Translations under genes and position numbers: made by a program
From: Escherichia coli
Lineage (GTDB): Bacteria; Pseudomonadota; Gammaproteobacteria; Enterobacterales; Enterobacteriaceae
Assembly: GCF_048403405.1 (NCBI RefSeq)
Contig: NZ_CP183129.1
Strand: one strand, 5' to 3'
DNA: 64,000 bases
The notes under the pieces: generated by a model
The model's input: the letters and a program-made list of their open reading frames with translations, nothing else
Database searches by the model: none
Told to the model about the DNA's origin: nothing
Shown here: positions 4,246 to 48,484 of the stretch, piece after piece
Layout of the letters: each line of letters starts with the position of its first letter
How positions within the stretch are numbered: the first letter of the stretch is position 1

Positions 4246-4581
4246 TCAGCGTTGAGCGGGATAAATAGCGATATAGACGTAACCACTGGAACCCAGCGTA
4301 TCGGCTTCGCAGGTTAGTTCTTTGGCGTATAGCGTGACGGTACGTTGTTGGCAGGGGGAGAGTTCACCGTCAGCCAGTTTCAGCTCCAGTTGTTTCATCA
4401 GCACCGGAAAAGCCTGGTCGATATGCAGCAGATCCGGGGAGCTGAATTTCCCGGTGATTGCGGCCCGATCAGCCAGGTAATGCAGGTTATGTCTTTCCTG
4501 TACCAGTCGAGCAGTGAAGCGTGGTGTTACGGTACAGGGAAGCCCCCATTCTTGTTGCATGACCTTGTCCTTTTGCAGCAT
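4246..4581 (-). CDS. CbeA/YfjZ/YafW-family antitoxin
   Basis: 111-aa ORF resembling CbeA (WGLPCTVTPRFTARLVQE…LHYLADRA…DQAFPVLMKQLELKL…TVTLYAKELTC); immediately upstream of the toxin. Exact start uncertain. Confidence 0.8.
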   Translation of the reverse strand: MLQKDKVMQQEWGLPCTVTPRFTARLVQERHNLHYLADRAAITGKFSSPDLLHIDQAFPVLMKQLELKLADGELSPCQQRTVTLYAKELTCEADTLGSSGYVYIAIYPAQR

Positions 4582-38394: not shown

Positions 38395-39393
38395 ATGCGC
38401 AATCACAGAATTTCTTTACAGGATATCGCTACGCTGGCTGGCGTAACAAAAATGACCGTGAGTCGTTATATCCGCTCGCCGAAAAAGGTGGCAAAGGAAA
38501 CAGGCGAGCGCATCGCCAAAATTATGGAAGAGATCAATTATATCCCTAATCGCGCTCCCGGCATGTTGTTGAATGCACAAAGTTATACCCTCGGTATCTT
38601 GATTCCGTCATTTCAAAATCAACTCTTCGCTGACATTCTCGCGGGAATAGAATCCGTCACCTCTGAGCATAATTATCAGACCCTTATTGCTAATTACAAT
38701 TACGATCGCGATTCCGAAGAAGAGTCGGTGATTAACCTGCTCTCTTATAACATTGACGGGATTATACTTTCGGAAAAATATCACACCATCAGGACGGTGA
38801 AATTTCTGCGTTCAGCCACCATTCCGGTCGTGGAATTGATGGATGTACAGGGAGAACGGCTGGATATGGAGGTCGGTTTTGATAATCGGCAGGCCGCTTT
38901 TGACATGGTGTGTACCATGCTGGAGAAGCGAGTCAGGCACAAAATTCTGTATCTCGGTTCCAAAGATGACACCCGCGATGAACAGCGTTATCAGGGGTAT
39001 TGCGATGCGATGATGCTGCATAATCTTTCCCCATTACGCATGAATCCACGCGCCATCTCATCCATTCATTTAGGAATGCAGTTAATGCGTGATGCCCTTA
39101 GCGCAAACCCGGATTTAGACGGTGTATTTTGCACCAATGACGATATTGCGATGGGTGCGCTTCTGCTGTGCCGCGAGCGAAACCTCGCCGTGCCAGAACA
39201 AATTTCCATTGCGGGTTTTCATGGGCTGGAGATTGGCAGGCAAATGATCCCAAGCCTCGCCAGCGTAATTACTCCCCGTTTTGATATTGGTCGGATGGCC
39301 GCCCAAATGTTGCTGAGCAAAATTAAGAATAACGATCACAACCACAACACTGTTGACCTCGGGTATCAGATTTATCACGGTAACACGCTTTAG
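38395..39393 (+). CDS. idnR: LacI-family regulator of the idn operon
   Basis: N-terminal HTH ([21 protein letters not shown]) with periplasmic-binding-like sensor domain; start at internal Met. Confidence 0.8.
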
Positions 39394-39470
39394 GTTATTT
39401 TCTCTGCATTACACATATTCTCTTTGCCGGACGTTGCCTATACTCCAGGCAGGAAACTGGAGGAAATCTC

Positions 39471-40973
39471 ATGAGCGAACCCCTGTTAATTGCCCGCACG
39501 TCGGATACAGAACTGTTTTTATTGCCGAGAATGGCGAATCGTCACGGGCTGATTACTGGCGCAACGGGGACGGGTAAAACCGTTACGCTGCAAAAACTGG
39601 CAGAGTCATTGTCGGAAATCGGTGTTCCGGTGTTTATGGCCGATGTGAAAGGCGATCTGACCGGCATCGCGCAGGCAGGAACGGCGTCGGAAAAACTGCT
39701 CGCAAGGCTTAAAAATATCGGCGTAAATGACTGGCAACCTCATGTTAATCCGGTGGTGGTGTGGGATATCTTTGGCGAGAAAGGCCACCCGGTGCGGGCG
39801 ACGGTTTCGGATCTGGGGCCGCTGTTGCTGGCACGACTGTTGAATCTCAACGATGTGCAATCTGGCGTGCTGAATATCATCTTCCGCATTGCTGATGATC
39901 AGGGGCTGTTACTGCTCGACTTTAAAGATTTGCGGGCGATTACCCAGTACATCGGCGATAACGCCAAATCCTTCCAGAATCAGTATGGTAATATCAGTAG
40001 CGCATCGGTTGGTGCCATCCAGCGCGGGCTGTTATCGCTGGAACAGCAAGGCGCGGCGCACTTTTTTGGTGAGCCGATGCTGGATATCAAAGACTGGATG
40101 CGTACCGATGCCAACGGTAAAGGCGTTATCAATATCCTCAGCGCCGAGAAGCTTTATCAGATGCCGAAACTGTACGCCGCCAGCCTGCTGTGGATGCTTT
40201 CAGAATTGTATGAACAATTGCCTGAAGCGGGCGATCTGGAGAAACCAAAACTGGTGTTTTTCTTCGACGAAGCACATCTGCTGTTTAACGATGCACCGCA
40301 GGTACTGCTGGATAAGATTGAGCAGGTGATAAGGCTTATCCGCTCGAAAGGCGTGGGCGTCTGGTTCGTTTCGCAAAACCCGTCAGATATTCCGGATAAC
40401 GTGCTCGGGCAGCTCGGTAATCGCGTTCAACACGCTTTGCGTGCTTTTACGCCTAAAGATCAGAAAGCAGTGAAGGCAGCGGCGCAAACCATGCGCCCCA
40501 ACCCTGCATTTGATACGGAAAAGGCGATTCAGGAACTGGGCACCGGCGAGGCGTTGATCTCTTTTCTGGATGCGAAAGGAAGCCCTTCTGTGGTGGAACA
40601 GGCGATGGTGATTGCGCCTTGTTCGCGGATGGGACCGGTGACGGAAGATGAGCGTAATGGCTTGATTAATCACTCTCCGGTGTATGGCAAGTACGAGGAT
40701 GACGTGGACCGGGAATCCGCCTATGAGATGTTGCAAAAAGGCTTTCAGGCCAGTACCGAGCAGCAAAATAATCCTCCCGCGAAAGGGAAAGAGGTGGCGG
40801 TGGATGACGGTATTCTCGGTGGATTGAAGGATATTTTGTTTGGCACTACCGGACCACGCGGCGGGAAGAAAGATGGTGTGGTGCAAACAATGGCGAAAAG
40901 CGCCGCCCGCCAGGTGACGAATCAGATTGTGCGTGGTGTGCTGGGGAGTTTGCTGGGGGGGAGAAAAAGATAA
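39471..40973 (+). CDS. yjgR: DUF853-family P-loop ATPase
   Basis: 500-aa ORF with Walker A (GATGTGKT) and core synteny. Confidence 0.8.
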
Positions 40974-40984
40974 GTCAGACGTGA

Positions 40985-41045
40985 TCTGTGCCCCTCACCC
41001 TAACCCTCTCCCCAAAGGGGCGAGGGGACCGTTCGAACTCGTATT
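40985..41045. repeat. GC-rich palindromic intergenic repeat (copy 1)
   Basis: ccctcaccctaaccctctccccaaaggggcgagggg palindrome between convergent yjgR and lptG; near-identical copy at 45062-45105. Confidence 0.5.
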
Positions 41046-41091
41046 TGACTTTGTCAACAATAATAAAGGGAGCTTTCGCTCCCTTGTTAGA

Positions 41092-42177
41092 TTACGATTT
41101 TCTCATTAACAGCCACAGGCTGATTAAGAAGAAGCTGGCGCTTGGCAACAGTGCGCCGATAATCGGCGGGATGCCGTAAACCAACGTCAGCGGGCCGAAG
41201 ATCTGGTCCAGTACGTAGAAGACAAAACCGAAGCTGATACCGGTGACCACACGCACGCCCATCGGTACGCTACGCAGTGGGCCAAAGATAAACGACAGCG
41301 CCATCAGCATCATCACCGCCACGGATAGCGGCTGGAAGATTTTGCTCCACATGTTGAGCTGATAACGTCCAGCGTCCTGACCACTCGACTTCAGATACTT
41401 CACATAGTTGTGCAAACCACTGATGGAGAGTGCATCCGGGTCCAGCGCCACCACGCCCAGTTTGTCTGGCGTGAGGTTGGTTTTCCAGGTGCCGCTCACC
41501 GTCTGCGAACCGGTAATCTGTTTCGGATTGGTCAAATCAGATTCATCAACCTGCGACAGACGCCAGACTTTATGTTCAGGGTCAAACTTCGCGGTAGCGG
41601 CATAGCGTACGGATTGCAGACGACGATTCTCGTTAAAGGCATAAATACTGATGCCACCTAACTCTTCGTCACCTTTAACCCGCTCAATGTAGACGAAGTT
41701 GTTGCCATCTTTCGCCCATAAACCTTGCTGGGTAGAGAGCAACGAGCCGCCGTACATCGCCTGCGCACGGTAGTTACGCGCCATCTGCTCGCCCTGCGGC
41801 GCGACCCATTCACCAATCGCCATCGTCAGCAAGACCAGCGGAATGGCGGTTTTCATCACCGACAGCGCCACCTGCATACGGGTAAAACCAGAAGCCTGCA
41901 TGACTACCAGTTCGCTGCGCTGCGCCAGCATCCCAAGACCAAGCAACGCCCCAAGCAGAGCCGCCATCGGGAAGAAGATTTGCACATCTTTCGGCACGCT
42001 CAGCAAGGTATACATTCCTGCGCCTAACGCGTCGTAACTCCCCTGCCCGGCTTTTTTCAGCTGATCGACAAACTTGATAATGCCCGACAGCGACACCAGC
42101 ATGAACAGCGTCATCATGATGGTGGTGAAAATAGTTTTACCGATATAGCGGTCAAGTACGCCAAAAGGTTGCATCAC
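41092..42177 (-). CDS. lptG: LPS export ABC permease LptG
   Basis: 361-aa membrane protein; 4-nt overlap with lptF; core synteny. Confidence 0.9.
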   Translation of the reverse strand: MMQPFGVLDRYIGKTIFTTIMMTLFMLVSLSGIIKFVDQLKKAGQGSYDALGAGMYTLLSVPKDVQIFFPMAALLGALLGLGMLAQRSELVVMQASGFTRMQVALSVMKTAIPLVLLTMAIGEWVAPQGEQMARNYRAQAMYGGSLLSTQQGLWAKDGNNFVYIERVKGDEELGGISIYAFNENRRLQSVRYAATAKFDPEHKVWRLSQVDESDLTNPKQITGSQTVSGTWKTNLTPDKLGVVALDPDALSISGLHNYVKYLKSSGQDAGRYQLNMWSKIFQPLSVAVMMLMALSFIFGPLRSVPMGVRVVTGISFGFVFYVLDQIFGPLTLVYGIPPIIGALLPSASFFLISLWLLMRKS

Positions 42178-43274
42178 ACCGCTCCTTTACGCGAAAAACT
42201 GGCGCGCAGGCGGCGGACCGGCACGGTGTCCCAAAGGTTGAGAACAATCGCCAAAGCCAGATAAATCAGGTTAACGGTCCACATCCACAGCGTCGGGTCC
42301 AGCTTACCTTTACCACCGTTCGATTTCAGGGAGGTCTGGATCAGGAAGAAAAGTAGATACAGCAGCATGGCTGGCAGCATCGACAGTACGCGTCCCTGAC
42401 GTGGGTTAACCACGCTCAACGGTACAACCATAAGTGCCATCATAAACACGGTGAATACCAACGTGATACGCCAGTTCAGTTCTGCGCGGGCACGATCGGT
42501 GTCAGTGTTCCACAATGTGCGCATGTCCATCTGGTCGGTATCGTTCGGGTCGAGCGCCACCGCCTGGTGACCAATGATCGCCTGATAATCCTGGAAGTCC
42601 GTAATGCGGAAATCACGTAACAGTGCAGTGCCTTCGAAGCGCGTTCCCTGGTTGAGAGTGACGACCTGGGAGCCGTCGCGCAGCTGGGTTAAATGTCCGG
42701 AATCGGCCACCACCACAGAAGGACGTGCATTACCTTTTGGTCGAATTTGCGCGAGGAATACATCTTTGAAATCGCTGCCGTCAACGCTTTCGATGAACAG
42801 CACCGAGCTGCCATTAGTCGCTTGCTGGAATTGCCCTTGCGCCAGCGCCGCCATGCCAGGGTTCGCTTTCGCTTCTGCTAACACTTCATCCTGATGACGC
42901 GATGACCACGGTCCCGCCCACATCACGTTAACCGCCGCGACGATTGCCGTGAATACCGCAAGGATCATTGCCGCTTTCACCAGAACCGCTTTGCTCAGGC
43001 CGCAGGCATGCATTACCGTAATTTCACTTTCGGTATACAGTTTGCCCAGCGTCATCAGCAGCCCGAGGAACAGGCTTAATGGCAGGATAAGCTGCGCCAT
43101 TTCCGGCACGCCCAACCCGAGAAGGGAGAGCACCAGATTCGCCGGAATATCGCCGTCAACCGCTGCGCCGAGGATCCTCACTAACTTTTGACAGAAGAAG
43201 ATCAAAAGCAAGATGAAGAGTATCGCCAGCTGGCTTTTGAGCGTCTCCCGCACCAGATATCTTATGATTATCAC
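42174..43274 (-). CDS. lptF: LPS export ABC permease LptF
   Basis: 366-aa membrane protein divergent from pepA. Confidence 0.9.
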   Translation of the reverse strand: MIIIRYLVRETLKSQLAILFILLLIFFCQKLVRILGAAVDGDIPANLVLSLLGLGVPEMAQLILPLSLFLGLLMTLGKLYTESEITVMHACGLSKAVLVKAAMILAVFTAIVAAVNVMWAGPWSSRHQDEVLAEAKANPGMAALAQGQFQQATNGSSVLFIESVDGSDFKDVFLAQIRPKGNARPSVVVADSGHLTQLRDGSQVVTLNQGTRFEGTALLRDFRITDFQDYQAIIGHQAVALDPNDTDQMDMRTLWNTDTDRARAELNWRITLVFTVFMMALMVVPLSVVNPRQGRVLSMLPAMLLYLLFFLIQTSLKSNGGKGKLDPTLWMWTVNLIYLALAIVLNLWDTVPVRRLRASFSRKGAV

Positions 43275-43537
43275 TTTAAATACGCCCGTAAAAACTCGTC
43301 TTTTGCAGGATTTTAGCTTGTTTCATGGCTTAAACGTCATTTATTCTCTTGAGTCGTCGAAATCGTCGCTAAGATAATTATACTCAACGGATTCACCTCT
43401 CAGATTTTGTTCTGACGTGCCAATGCCGTAATAACGTTAAGATTAACACGAAGTCATCGCAACAGCGGACATGAGTTACGAAAGCTTGCAATTCTATCTG
43501 TAGCCACCGCCGTTGTCTTTAAGATTCAGGAGCGTAG

Positions 43538-45052
<1,515 letters not shown>

Positions 45053-45061
45053 GTTTGCGTT

Positions 45062-45105
45062 TTACCCTCACCCTAACCCTCTCCCTAAGGGAGAGGGAAC
45101 CGATC
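45062..45105. repeat. GC-rich palindromic intergenic repeat (copy 2)
   Basis: ccctcaccctaaccctctccctaagggagaggg immediately downstream of pepA. Confidence 0.5.
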
Positions 45106-45185
45106 GAGCGCAATAGAAATTCATTGCTCATCTTTCAGGGTGAGGAATGCAGCAATATTTAAATCCACCACAAGAAGCCCCATAT

Positions 45186-45629
45186 ATGAAAAACGCGACG
45201 TTCTACCTTCTGGACAATGACACCACCGTCGATGGCTTAAGCGCCGTTGAGCAACTGGTGTGTGAAATTGCCGCAGAACGTTGGCGCAGCGGTAAGCGTG
45301 TGCTCATCGCCTGTGAAGATGAAAAGCAGGCTTACCGGCTGGATGAAGCCCTGTGGGCGCGTCCGGCAGAAAGCTTTGTCCCGCATAATTTAGCGGGAGA
45401 AGGACCGCGCGGCGGTGCGCCGGTGGAGATCGCCTGGCCGCAAAAGCGCAGCAGCAGCCCGCGCGATATATTGATTAGTCTGCGAACAAGCTTTGCAGAT
45501 TTTGCCACCGCTTTCACAGAAGTGGTAGACTTCGTTCCTTATGAAGATTCTCTGAAACAACTGGCGCGCGAACGCTATAAAGCCTACCGCGTGGCTGGTT
45601 TCAACCTGAATACGGCAACCTGGAAATAA
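45186..45629 (+). CDS. holC: DNA polymerase III chi subunit
   Basis: 147-aa ORF from internal Met (MKNATFYLL…); stop overlaps the valS start (TAATG). Confidence 0.85.
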
Positions 45630-48484
45630 TGGAAAAGACATACAACCCACAAGATATCGAACAGCCGCTTTACGAGCACTGGGAAAAGCAGGGCTACTTT
45701 AAGCCTAATGGCGATGAAAGCCAGGAAAGTTTCTGCATCATGATCCCGCCGCCGAACGTCACCGGCAGTTTGCATATGGGTCACGCCTTCCAGCAAACCA
45801 TCATGGATACCATGATCCGCTATCAGCGCATGCAGGGCAAAAACACCCTGTGGCAGGTCGGTACTGACCACGCCGGGATCGCTACCCAGATGGTCGTTGA
45901 GCGCAAGATTGCCGCAGAAGAAGGTAAAACCCGTCACGACTACGGCCGCGAAGCTTTCATCGACAAAATCTGGGAATGGAAAGCGGAATCCGGCGGCACC
46001 ATTACCCGTCAGATGCGCCGTCTCGGCAACTCCGTGGACTGGGAGCGTGAACGCTTCACCATGGACGAAGGCCTGTCCAATGCGGTGAAAGAAGTTTTCG
46101 TTCGTCTGTATAAAGAAGACCTGATTTACCGTGGCAAACGCCTGGTAAACTGGGATCCGAAACTGCGCACCGCTATCTCTGACCTGGAAGTCGAAAACCG
46201 CGAATCGAAAGGTTCGATGTGGCACATCCGCTATCCGCTGGCTGACGGCGCGAAAACCGCAGACGGTAAAGATTACCTGGTGGTTGCGACTACCCGTCCG
46301 GAAACCCTGCTGGGCGATACCGGTGTAGCCGTTAACCCGGAAGATCCGCGTTACAAAGATCTGATTGGCAAATATGTCATTCTGCCGCTGGTTAACCGTC
46401 GTATTCCGATCGTTGGCGACGAACACGCCGACATGGAAAAAGGCACCGGCTGCGTGAAGATCACCCCGGCGCACGACTTTAACGACTATGAAGTCGGTAA
46501 ACGTCACGCCCTGCCGATGATCAACATCCTGACCTTTGACGGCGATATCCGTGAAAGCGCCCAGGTGTTCGATACCAAAGGTAACGAATCTGACGTTTAT
46601 TCCAGCGAGATCCCGGCAGAATTCCAGAAACTGGAGCGTTTTGCTGCACGTAAAGCGGTCGTTGCTGCGGTTGACGCACTCGGCCTGCTGGAAGAAATTA
46701 AACCGCACGACCTGACCGTTCCTTACGGCGACCGTGGCGGCGTAGTTATCGAACCGATGCTGACCGACCAGTGGTACGTGCGTGCCGATGTCCTGGCGAA
46801 ACCGGCGGTTGAAGCGGTTGAGAACGGCGACATTCAGTTCGTACCGAAGCAGTACGAAAACATGTACTTCTCCTGGATGCGCGATATTCAGGACTGGTGT
46901 ATCTCTCGTCAGCTGTGGTGGGGTCACCGTATCCCGGCATGGTATGACGAAGCGGGTAACGTTTATGTTGGCCGCAACGAAGACGAAGTGCGTAAAGAAA
47001 ATAACCTCGGTGCTGATGTTGTCCTGCGTCAGGACGAAGACGTTCTCGACACCTGGTTCTCTTCTGCGCTGTGGACCTTCTCTACCCTTGGCTGGCCGGA
47101 AAATACCGACGCCCTGCGTCAGTTCCACCCAACCAGCGTGATGGTATCTGGTTTCGACATCATCTTCTTCTGGATTGCCCGCATGATCATGATGACCATG
47201 CACTTCATCAAAGATGAAAATGGCAAACCGCAGGTGCCGTTCCACACTGTTTACATGACCGGTCTGATTCGTGACGACGAAGGCCAGAAGATGTCCAAAT
47301 CCAAGGGTAACGTTATCGACCCGCTGGATATGGTTGACGGTATTTCGCTGCCGGAACTGCTGGAGAAACGTACCGGCAATATGATGCAGCCGCAGCTGGC
47401 GGACAAAATCCGTAAGCGCACCGAGAAGCAGTTCCCGAACGGCATTGAGCCGCACGGTACTGACGCGCTGCGCTTCACCCTGGCGGCGCTGGCTTCTACC
47501 GGTCGTGACATCAACTGGGATATGAAGCGTCTGGAAGGCTACCGTAACTTCTGTAACAAGCTGTGGAACGCCAGCCGCTTTGTGCTGATGAACACAGAAG
47601 GTCAGGATTGCGGCTTCAACGGCGGCGAAATGACGCTATCGCTGGCGGACCGCTGGATTCTGGCGGAGTTCAACCAGACCATCAAAGCGTACCGCGAAGC
47701 GCTGGACAGCTTCCGCTTCGATATCGCTGCAGGCATTCTGTATGAATTCACCTGGAACCAGTTCTGTGACTGGTATCTCGAGCTGACCAAGCCGGTAATG
47801 AACGGTGGAACAGAAGCCGAACTGCGCGGTACTCGCCATACGCTGGTGACTGTACTGGAAGGTCTGCTGCGCCTCGCGCATCCGATCATTCCGTTCATCA
47901 CCGAAACCATCTGGCAGCGTGTGAAAGTACTTTGCGGTATCACTGCCGACACCATCATGCTGCAGCCGTTCCCGCAGTACGATGCGTCTCAGGTTGATGA
48001 AGCCGCACTGGCCGACACCGAGTGGCTGAAACAGGCGATCGTTGCTGTACGTAACATCCGTGCAGAAATGAACATCGCGCCGGGCAAACCGCTGGAACTG
48101 CTGCTGCGTGGTTGCAGCGCGGATGCAGAACGTCGCGTAAATGAAAACCGTGGCTTCCTGCAAACCCTGGCGCGTCTGGAAAGCATCACCGTGCTGCCTG
48201 CCGATGACAAAGGTCCGGTTTCCGTTACGAAGATCATCGACGGCGTAGAGCTGCTGATCCCGATGGCTGGCCTCATCAACAAAGAAGATGAGCTGGCGCG
48301 TCTGGCGAAAGAAGTGGCGAAGATCGAAGGCGAAATCAGCCGTATCGAGAACAAGCTGGCGAATGAAGGCTTTGTCGCCCGCGCACCGGAAGCGGTCATC
48401 GCGAAAGAGCGTGAGAAGCTGGAAGGCTATGCGGAAGCGAAAGCGAAGCTGATTGAACAGCAGGCTGTTATCGCCGCGCTGTAA
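45629..48484 (+). CDS. valS: valyl-tRNA synthetase
   Basis: 951-aa class I aaRS with HMGH-type motif (SLHMGHAF) and KMSKS motif; C-terminal coiled coil. Confidence 0.95.

Follow-up and report, generated by a model that had tools for sequence, protein, structure and literature searches.

Two GC-rich palindromes downstream of yjgR and pepA in an Escherichia coli genome are recognised by sequence as copies of the BoxC repeat family

What are the two GC-rich palindromes that follow yjgR and pepA in the 64,000-nucleotide stretch of E. coli DNA analysed here (the window), and do they act at the ends of the transcripts? The earlier note, made from the letters alone, had described them as near-identical copies of an intergenic repeat distinct from the REP/BIME units, probably a dispersed family that acts as transcript-end structures and generates spurious small open reading frames, and it had proposed a genome-wide count, restriction of the motif to these two sites being what would speak against a family. 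The 6 kb that surround both sites have a match in 5424 of the 5426 complete E. coli genomes and carry the annotated genes yjgR, lptG, lptF, pepA, and holC; in the orientation of the window, yjgR, pepA, and holC lie on the plus strand and lptG and lptF on the minus strand. Copy 1 begins 17-18 nt beyond the stop codon of yjgR (40971-40973), within a spacer of 113 bp (40974-41086) which separates the convergent stop codons of yjgR and lptG (41087-41089). Copy 2 begins 12 nt beyond the stop codon of pepA (45050-45052), within the spacer 45053-45185 that ends at the start codon of holC (45186). The 21-mer CCCTCACCCTAACCCTCTCCC occurs exactly, on the plus strand, at 40992-41012 and 45065-45085 and is thus present exactly twice in the 64 kb; no further match with up to three mismatches was found in the window, and none in 100 shuffles (chance expectation 0). 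Over some 45 nt the copies can be aligned with no gap other than a 2-nt difference in a loop; the inverted repeat of site 1 has an arm of 10 nt with one mismatch, and that of site 2 (CCCTCTCCCT/AGGGAGAGGG) is perfect. The exact 21-mer and the inverted repeats bear out the description of near-identical palindromes behind two plus-strand genes, close to the positions originally given. The small reading frames across them, one of 63 amino acids at 40988-41179 (+, 'MPLTLTLSPKGRGD...') and one of 35 amino acids at 45055-45162 (+, 'MRFTLTLTLSLRERE...'), are artefacts of six-frame translation, as had been suspected. Independently of the repeats, a strong Rfam match to Ysr276 (Yersinia sRNA 276, antisense type; 184.6 bits, E 2e-56) was recorded at 44099-44293 on the minus strand, within the coding sequence of pepA and antisense to it.

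The identity of the element follows from a published pattern, CCCTCNCCC-N3-6-GGGNGAGGG-N3-GGGNGAGGG, which defines the TMECO elements (Holder et al. 2015, PMC4666352). Two places in the window, and no others, match it: 40992-41026(-) and 45065-45097(-); the shuffles contained none. The 36-nt core of copy 1 is, letter for letter, that of the K-12 TMECO elements nos. 7, 11, and 15 (Table 1, PMC4666352), and a 34-mer of copy 2 appears without change among the entries for E. coli HS (Supplementary Table S8, PMC4666352), with the coordinates 4520554-4520587; we checked this position and found it between holC and pepA, so the BoxC locus of the pepA-holC spacer had already been catalogued. Three names cover a single element: the 'BoxC' repeat of the 1990s, the 'PIT' of Hoyne and Maher, and TMECO (PMC4666352). 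Its first mention, in 1992, concerned the DNA upstream of envM/fabI; PIT, for potential intrastrand triplex, and after it TMECO are later names (Bergler 1992; Bachellier 1999; Hoyne 2000, 2002; Holder 2015, PMC4666352), and an independent stem-loop survey of 2008 described it as a family of 50-56 bp with 22-32 copies in E. coli. A literature search for newer functional work on BoxC/TMECO returned nothing past Holder 2015 and this survey.

The limits of the units, about 40985-41040 and 45060-45111, were set by alignment to 23 K-12 copies, among which conservation of the type A unit spans about 56 bp. The features of the two copies are as follows.

40985..41040, minus strand: BoxC/PIT/TMECO unit, copy 1, type A with one stem mismatch (pattern match and alignment to K-12 copies)
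40991-41026, minus strand: core of copy 1, CCCTCGCCCC-TTT-GGGGAGAGGG-TTA-GGGTGAGGGG (pattern match at 40992-41026)
41027-41040, minus strand: family flank of copy 1, GAGTTCGAACGGTC, common to the K-12 type A copies
41041..41056, minus strand: possible outer extension of copy 1, TGACAAAGTCAAATAC, similar to TGACAAA-N-CAAAAA, which half or more of 17 aligned type A copies have at equal offset
45060..45111, minus strand: BoxC/PIT/TMECO unit, copy 2, type A with perfect stems (pattern match and flank alignment)
45065-45097, minus strand: core of copy 2, CCCTCTCCC-TTA-GGGAGAGGG-TTA-GGGTGAGGG
45098-45111, minus strand: family flank of copy 2, GCGCTCGATCGGTT (flank alignment with K-12 copies)
45112..45145, no strand assigned: sequence that arrives with copy 2 and is absent from the BIME alleles (inverted repeat, RNA fold, K-12 alignment)

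The similarity extends beyond the core: the flank beside the C-rich block reads G.GC.CG..CGGT(C/T) in both window copies and in the 15 K-12 type A copies, and the other flank is weaker, the consensus GAACAG being replaced by GCACAG at site 1 and by TAAAAC at site 2. The outer boundary of copy 1 is uncertain because MG1655, with its REP allele, has part of 41041..41056 as well. At site 2, about 100 bp stand in place of a BIME and reach to about 45145, where AGGGTGAGG (45137-45145) pairs with CCTCACCCT (45066-45074) in the first C-block; in the RNA fold, this outer stem encloses the core hairpin. In the yjdP-phnP spacer of K-12 there is a partial second copy to which the segment 45112-45145 can be aligned; this segment may be the vestige of a decayed inverted partner copy, as at the five paired K-12 BoxC loci, a likeness that is suggestive only. 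In all these properties the window copies agree with BoxC/PIT/TMECO: three blocks, a second loop of 3 nt (TTA, type A), the flank CG..CGGTC, a unit of about 56 bp, an intergenic position, and about 20 copies per genome. Nothing essential differs, the first loop of copy 2 being the shortest that the pattern allows (3 nt). Judged by sequence, then, both palindromes belong, as unremarkable members, to the known BoxC family of E. coli, and with that the finding is itself an ordinary one. Both loci lack BoxC in K-12 and for this reason do not figure on the K-12 lists. Rfam covariance models run over 39000-47000 at E <= 1 gave no match on either copy, Rfam having no BoxC model, and the RefSeq annotation of MG1655 holds no repeat features around the locus.

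The genome-wide count was made with the 56-nt query of site 1 against 5426 complete E. coli genomes, and BoxC was found in 5425 of them, with a median of 19 places per genome (range 2-35), almost all chromosomal; K-12 derivatives have 20-21 places, Nissle 5, O157 EDL933 14, and some strains 28-34. With a median of 19 places, the motif is not unique to the two sites, and the family is dispersed as proposed. All 23 published K-12 copies were found again at their published coordinates. They occupy 18 spacers, of which 7 are convergent, 9 tandem, and 2 divergent (yagA/yagE and fepB/entC), the nearest stop codon mostly lies 11-55 nt away, and the upstream gene may face either the C-rich or the G-rich strand. 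Like both window copies, all 23 are situated between annotated genes. BoxC copies thus favour spacers with a 3' end, though not exclusively and in no fixed orientation; in the published analysis, TMECO elements are more often upstream than downstream of open reading frames (PMC4666352).

The description of the palindromes as distinct from REP/BIME holds as well. The REP consensus GCC[GT]GATG[CA]G[GA]CG is absent from both window spacers and hence from both copies; it occurs in most of the pepA-holC alleles read from MG1655, O157, and other strains, and it is visible in the yjgR-lptG spacer of MG1655. REP/BIME elements (PU) resemble BoxC in being imperfect palindromes, short and rich in GC, that lie shortly past stop codons in intergenic spacers which are transcribed, and the presence of REP in the same spacers of other strains could suggest that the BoxC copies are a divergent REP/BIME subtype. 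We regard this as highly improbable, as the copies do not match the consensus, BoxC and REP alleles cannot be aligned across the element, and the literature keeps BoxC as a separate family; the subtype was rejected for lack of sequence similarity. The two elements also differ in build, BoxC having three blocks, with a triplex possible, and REP two arms. REP elements are mobilised by a transposase family, RAYT, and have documented effects on mRNA stability, their hairpins stabilising the upstream mRNA, whereas BoxC has neither a known mobilising transposase family nor documented effects of this kind.

The two elements meet in the same places. In MG1655, neither the yjgR-lptG nor the pepA-holC spacer contains BoxC, and REP is found there instead; the MG1655 counterparts of the variable spacers are L001 8402-8561 (site 1) and 4282-4440 (site 2). 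Counting a form at site 1 when it covered at least 80% of the query, the BoxC form of yjgR-lptG is present in 1792 genomes (33%) and the K-12 REP form in 3606 (66%), together 5398 of 5426. Site 1 is therefore essentially biallelic in E. coli. The pepA-holC spacer carries the BoxC form in 1404 E. coli genomes (about 26%), and five non-BoxC alleles that were read have one, two, or three BIME units in spacers of 159-353 bp. An empty allele was not encountered among these five, and at most 28 of the 5426 genomes lack both forms at site 1; a common empty allele at site 1 is almost excluded. No target-site duplication was seen at the junctions between BoxC and REP alleles. Insertions of boxC at BIME loci were reportedly described by Bachellier and co-workers in Genetics in 1997, which agrees with the allelism seen here. 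In five strains with the BoxC allele of site 1, whose flanks are about 9% different, the 35-nt core is identical in four, the exception being E. coli HS with one G-to-A change, on account of which the HS copy of site 1 is missing from the strict published list. An invariant core in four of five strains in spite of such divergent flanks indicates that the alleles are old and that the core has been kept by selection or gene conversion. The end of lptG, which adjoins the variable spacer, is also not the same in the two strains: its final codons read ...IVI stop here (41087-41095) and ...IVTE stop in MG1655 (L001 8385-8401).

The build of the unit raises the question of whether the DNA itself is the functional form. 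One C-rich and two G-rich 9-10-mers are joined by 3-nt loops within about 56 bp of non-coding DNA, and with this composition either strand can fold into one of two alternative GC-rich hairpins. An isolated G-rich strand could, moreover, fold back twice into a purine-motif triplex; by the base-triad rules applied on paper, 9 triads would form at site 2, and site 1 would have one mismatch. Oligonucleotides of types A and A mm, both of which are represented here, form very stable intrastrand triplexes in vitro, with melting temperatures of 74-82 C (PMC4666352). Holder et al. (2015, PMC4666352) proposed that a triplex or hairpin of the G-rich strand stalls polymerases during replication or repair and raises local rearrangement, which would make BoxC a generator of intergenic variability. 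The surroundings of TMECO loci are more variable than those of controls (PMC4666352), and the strong polymorphism of both window loci among E. coli genomes agrees with this published variability and fits the proposal, as does the G-rich strand probably being the lagging-strand template for both copies, judging by K-12 map positions; for the single K-12 copies, a hand count of strand against replication gave 8 versus 5, which is not significant. DMS footprinting in vivo and NMR of the duplex, however, revealed no sign of a triplex (PMC4666352), so that the triplex property may be irrelevant. The loci show two old, discrete alleles with intact flanks and no smear of local deletions, and BIME alleles vary in unit number by themselves, so that the source of the variability may be the slot or REP and not BoxC. 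On balance we consider the proposal possible but clearly less likely than not.

The remaining part of the original description, that the repeats are transcript-end structures, found no support. Folded as RNA, site 1 has a predicted minimum free energy of -18.7 kcal/mol (z -1.65) and site 2 one of -17.9 kcal/mol (z -3.25), the stability at site 1 being not far above that of shuffles of the same composition. Intrinsic terminators resemble BoxC in being GC-rich stem-loops downstream of a stop codon and differ in the T/U run after the stem, which is absent at both copies; lacking a U tract, neither copy fits an intrinsic terminator, and the terminator scan called neither. The scan did point to a hairpin nearby, in the spacer of copy 1.

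41066..41085, minus strand: terminator-like hairpin AAGGGAGC-GAAA-GCTCCCTT, then TATTATTGTT (terminator scan, inverted repeat), not part of the repeat

The start of this hairpin lies 1 nt past the stop codon of lptG (minus strand, 41087-41089), and BoxC and REP alleles alike have kept it (MG1655, HS, and three other strains). It is probably the real terminator of lptFG, and it is a better candidate for transcript ends at site 1 than the BoxC stem. The same segment also reads AAGGGAGC-TTTC-GCTCCCTT, with an A-rich run upstream and a T-rich run downstream on the minus strand.

A wider form of the transcript-end idea is that the BoxC hairpin either terminates transcription or shields the 3' ends of the yjgR and pepA mRNAs from exonucleases, as REP does elsewhere. 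Both copies stand 12-18 nt past a stop codon, 16 of the 18 K-12 BoxC regions face at least one gene 3' end, the stems are stable, and other strains have REP elements in the same two slots. Against it stand the missing U tract at either copy, the conserved terminator-like hairpin 40 nt beyond the copy of site 1, the position of site 2 only 89 nt upstream of holC, whose expression must continue, and the occurrence of family members, in either orientation, in the divergent promoter spacers yagA/yagE and fepB/entC. Reporter assays are likewise negative, these elements having neither promoter nor terminator activity according to Hoyne & Maher 2002 in the form in which PMC4666352 cites that work. 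We therefore judge a role of BoxC in forming or protecting transcript ends to be rather unlikely.

The reading that we prefer, and hold to be very likely, is that 40985-41040 and 45060-45111 are BoxC members which sit in their spacers as intergenic passengers and are not dedicated terminators; about a third of E. coli genomes have such a passenger at site 1, and about a quarter at site 2. BoxC would spread or persist as a selfish or neutral repeat, possibly homogenised by gene conversion, and would be kept in the only places where it is tolerated, the spacers just beyond stop codons. When transcribed, it would form a stable stem-loop (about -18 kcal/mol) in the 3' untranslated ends of yjgR and pepA, which could, by analogy with REP, incidentally slow 3'-to-5' exonucleases; a passive exonuclease barrier of this sort is possible. 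Two observations weigh against a passenger in the strict sense: the identity of the core in four of the five haplotypes of site 1 hints at constraint or gene conversion and thus argues against pure neutrality, and the location of the window copies and most K-12 copies 11-55 nt past a stop codon fits some role at 3' ends. Neither a mobilising enzyme nor a target-site duplication was found for BoxC, which weighs against calling it a 'selfish mobile repeat'.

The motif also reaches beyond E. coli. A scan of species-representative genomes with the three-block pattern gave at least 120 loci, and among the matches listed it is multi-copy in assemblies labelled Polaromonas, Archangium, Verrucomicrobia, Contendobacter, Hyphomicrobiales, Armatimonadetes, and others, a wider range than the 'proteobacterial' one stated in 2015. 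Among the same matches, the blocks are nearly identical to those of E. coli, including a recurrent 'mismatch' form, CCCTCGCCC; as the pattern fixed the arrangement of the blocks, the matches cannot show that this arrangement is preferred over alternatives. In the metagenome-assembled genome GL140_5_metabat_74, the motif forms the centre of a near-identical, dispersed, and sharply bounded unit of about 105 nt, which starts with TTAGTGCCTTACGGCTTCGTAACAGTGATAAAAAG, ends with GGGCTCCGCCCGCGTTAG, and has TTAG on both sides; by its sequence, it looks like a miniature mobile element. A regular expression for a Polaromonas flank subfamily matched two sequences.

For annotation, the result argues for masking BoxC, which would keep peptides of the 'PLTLTLSPKGRGD' type out of the gene calls, and for not labelling the repeats as terminators. 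Going further, one might regard BoxC and REP/BIME as interchangeable occupants of the same slots, with BoxC as the recognition module of a widespread system for mobilisation or replacement whose targets are 3' spacers with hairpins. The two BoxC-or-REP slots, 4 kb apart and with old, discrete alleles, invite this idea, as does the multi-copy motif of distant phyla, with its conserved 'mismatch' G of CCCTCGCCC and, in some genomes, its place in sharply bounded units of about 105 nt; we nevertheless think the idea improbable; the spread in BoxC copy number (2-35) could help to look for an associated gene. The allelism of BoxC and REP at both spacers is a modest by-product of the analysis that is usable experimentally. 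Thousands of strains differ at the two spacers only in having BoxC or REP, and the effects of the two elements are thereby directly comparable: in this natural experiment, 3'-end formation, mRNA stability, holC expression, and the local mutation rate could be compared between the alleles.
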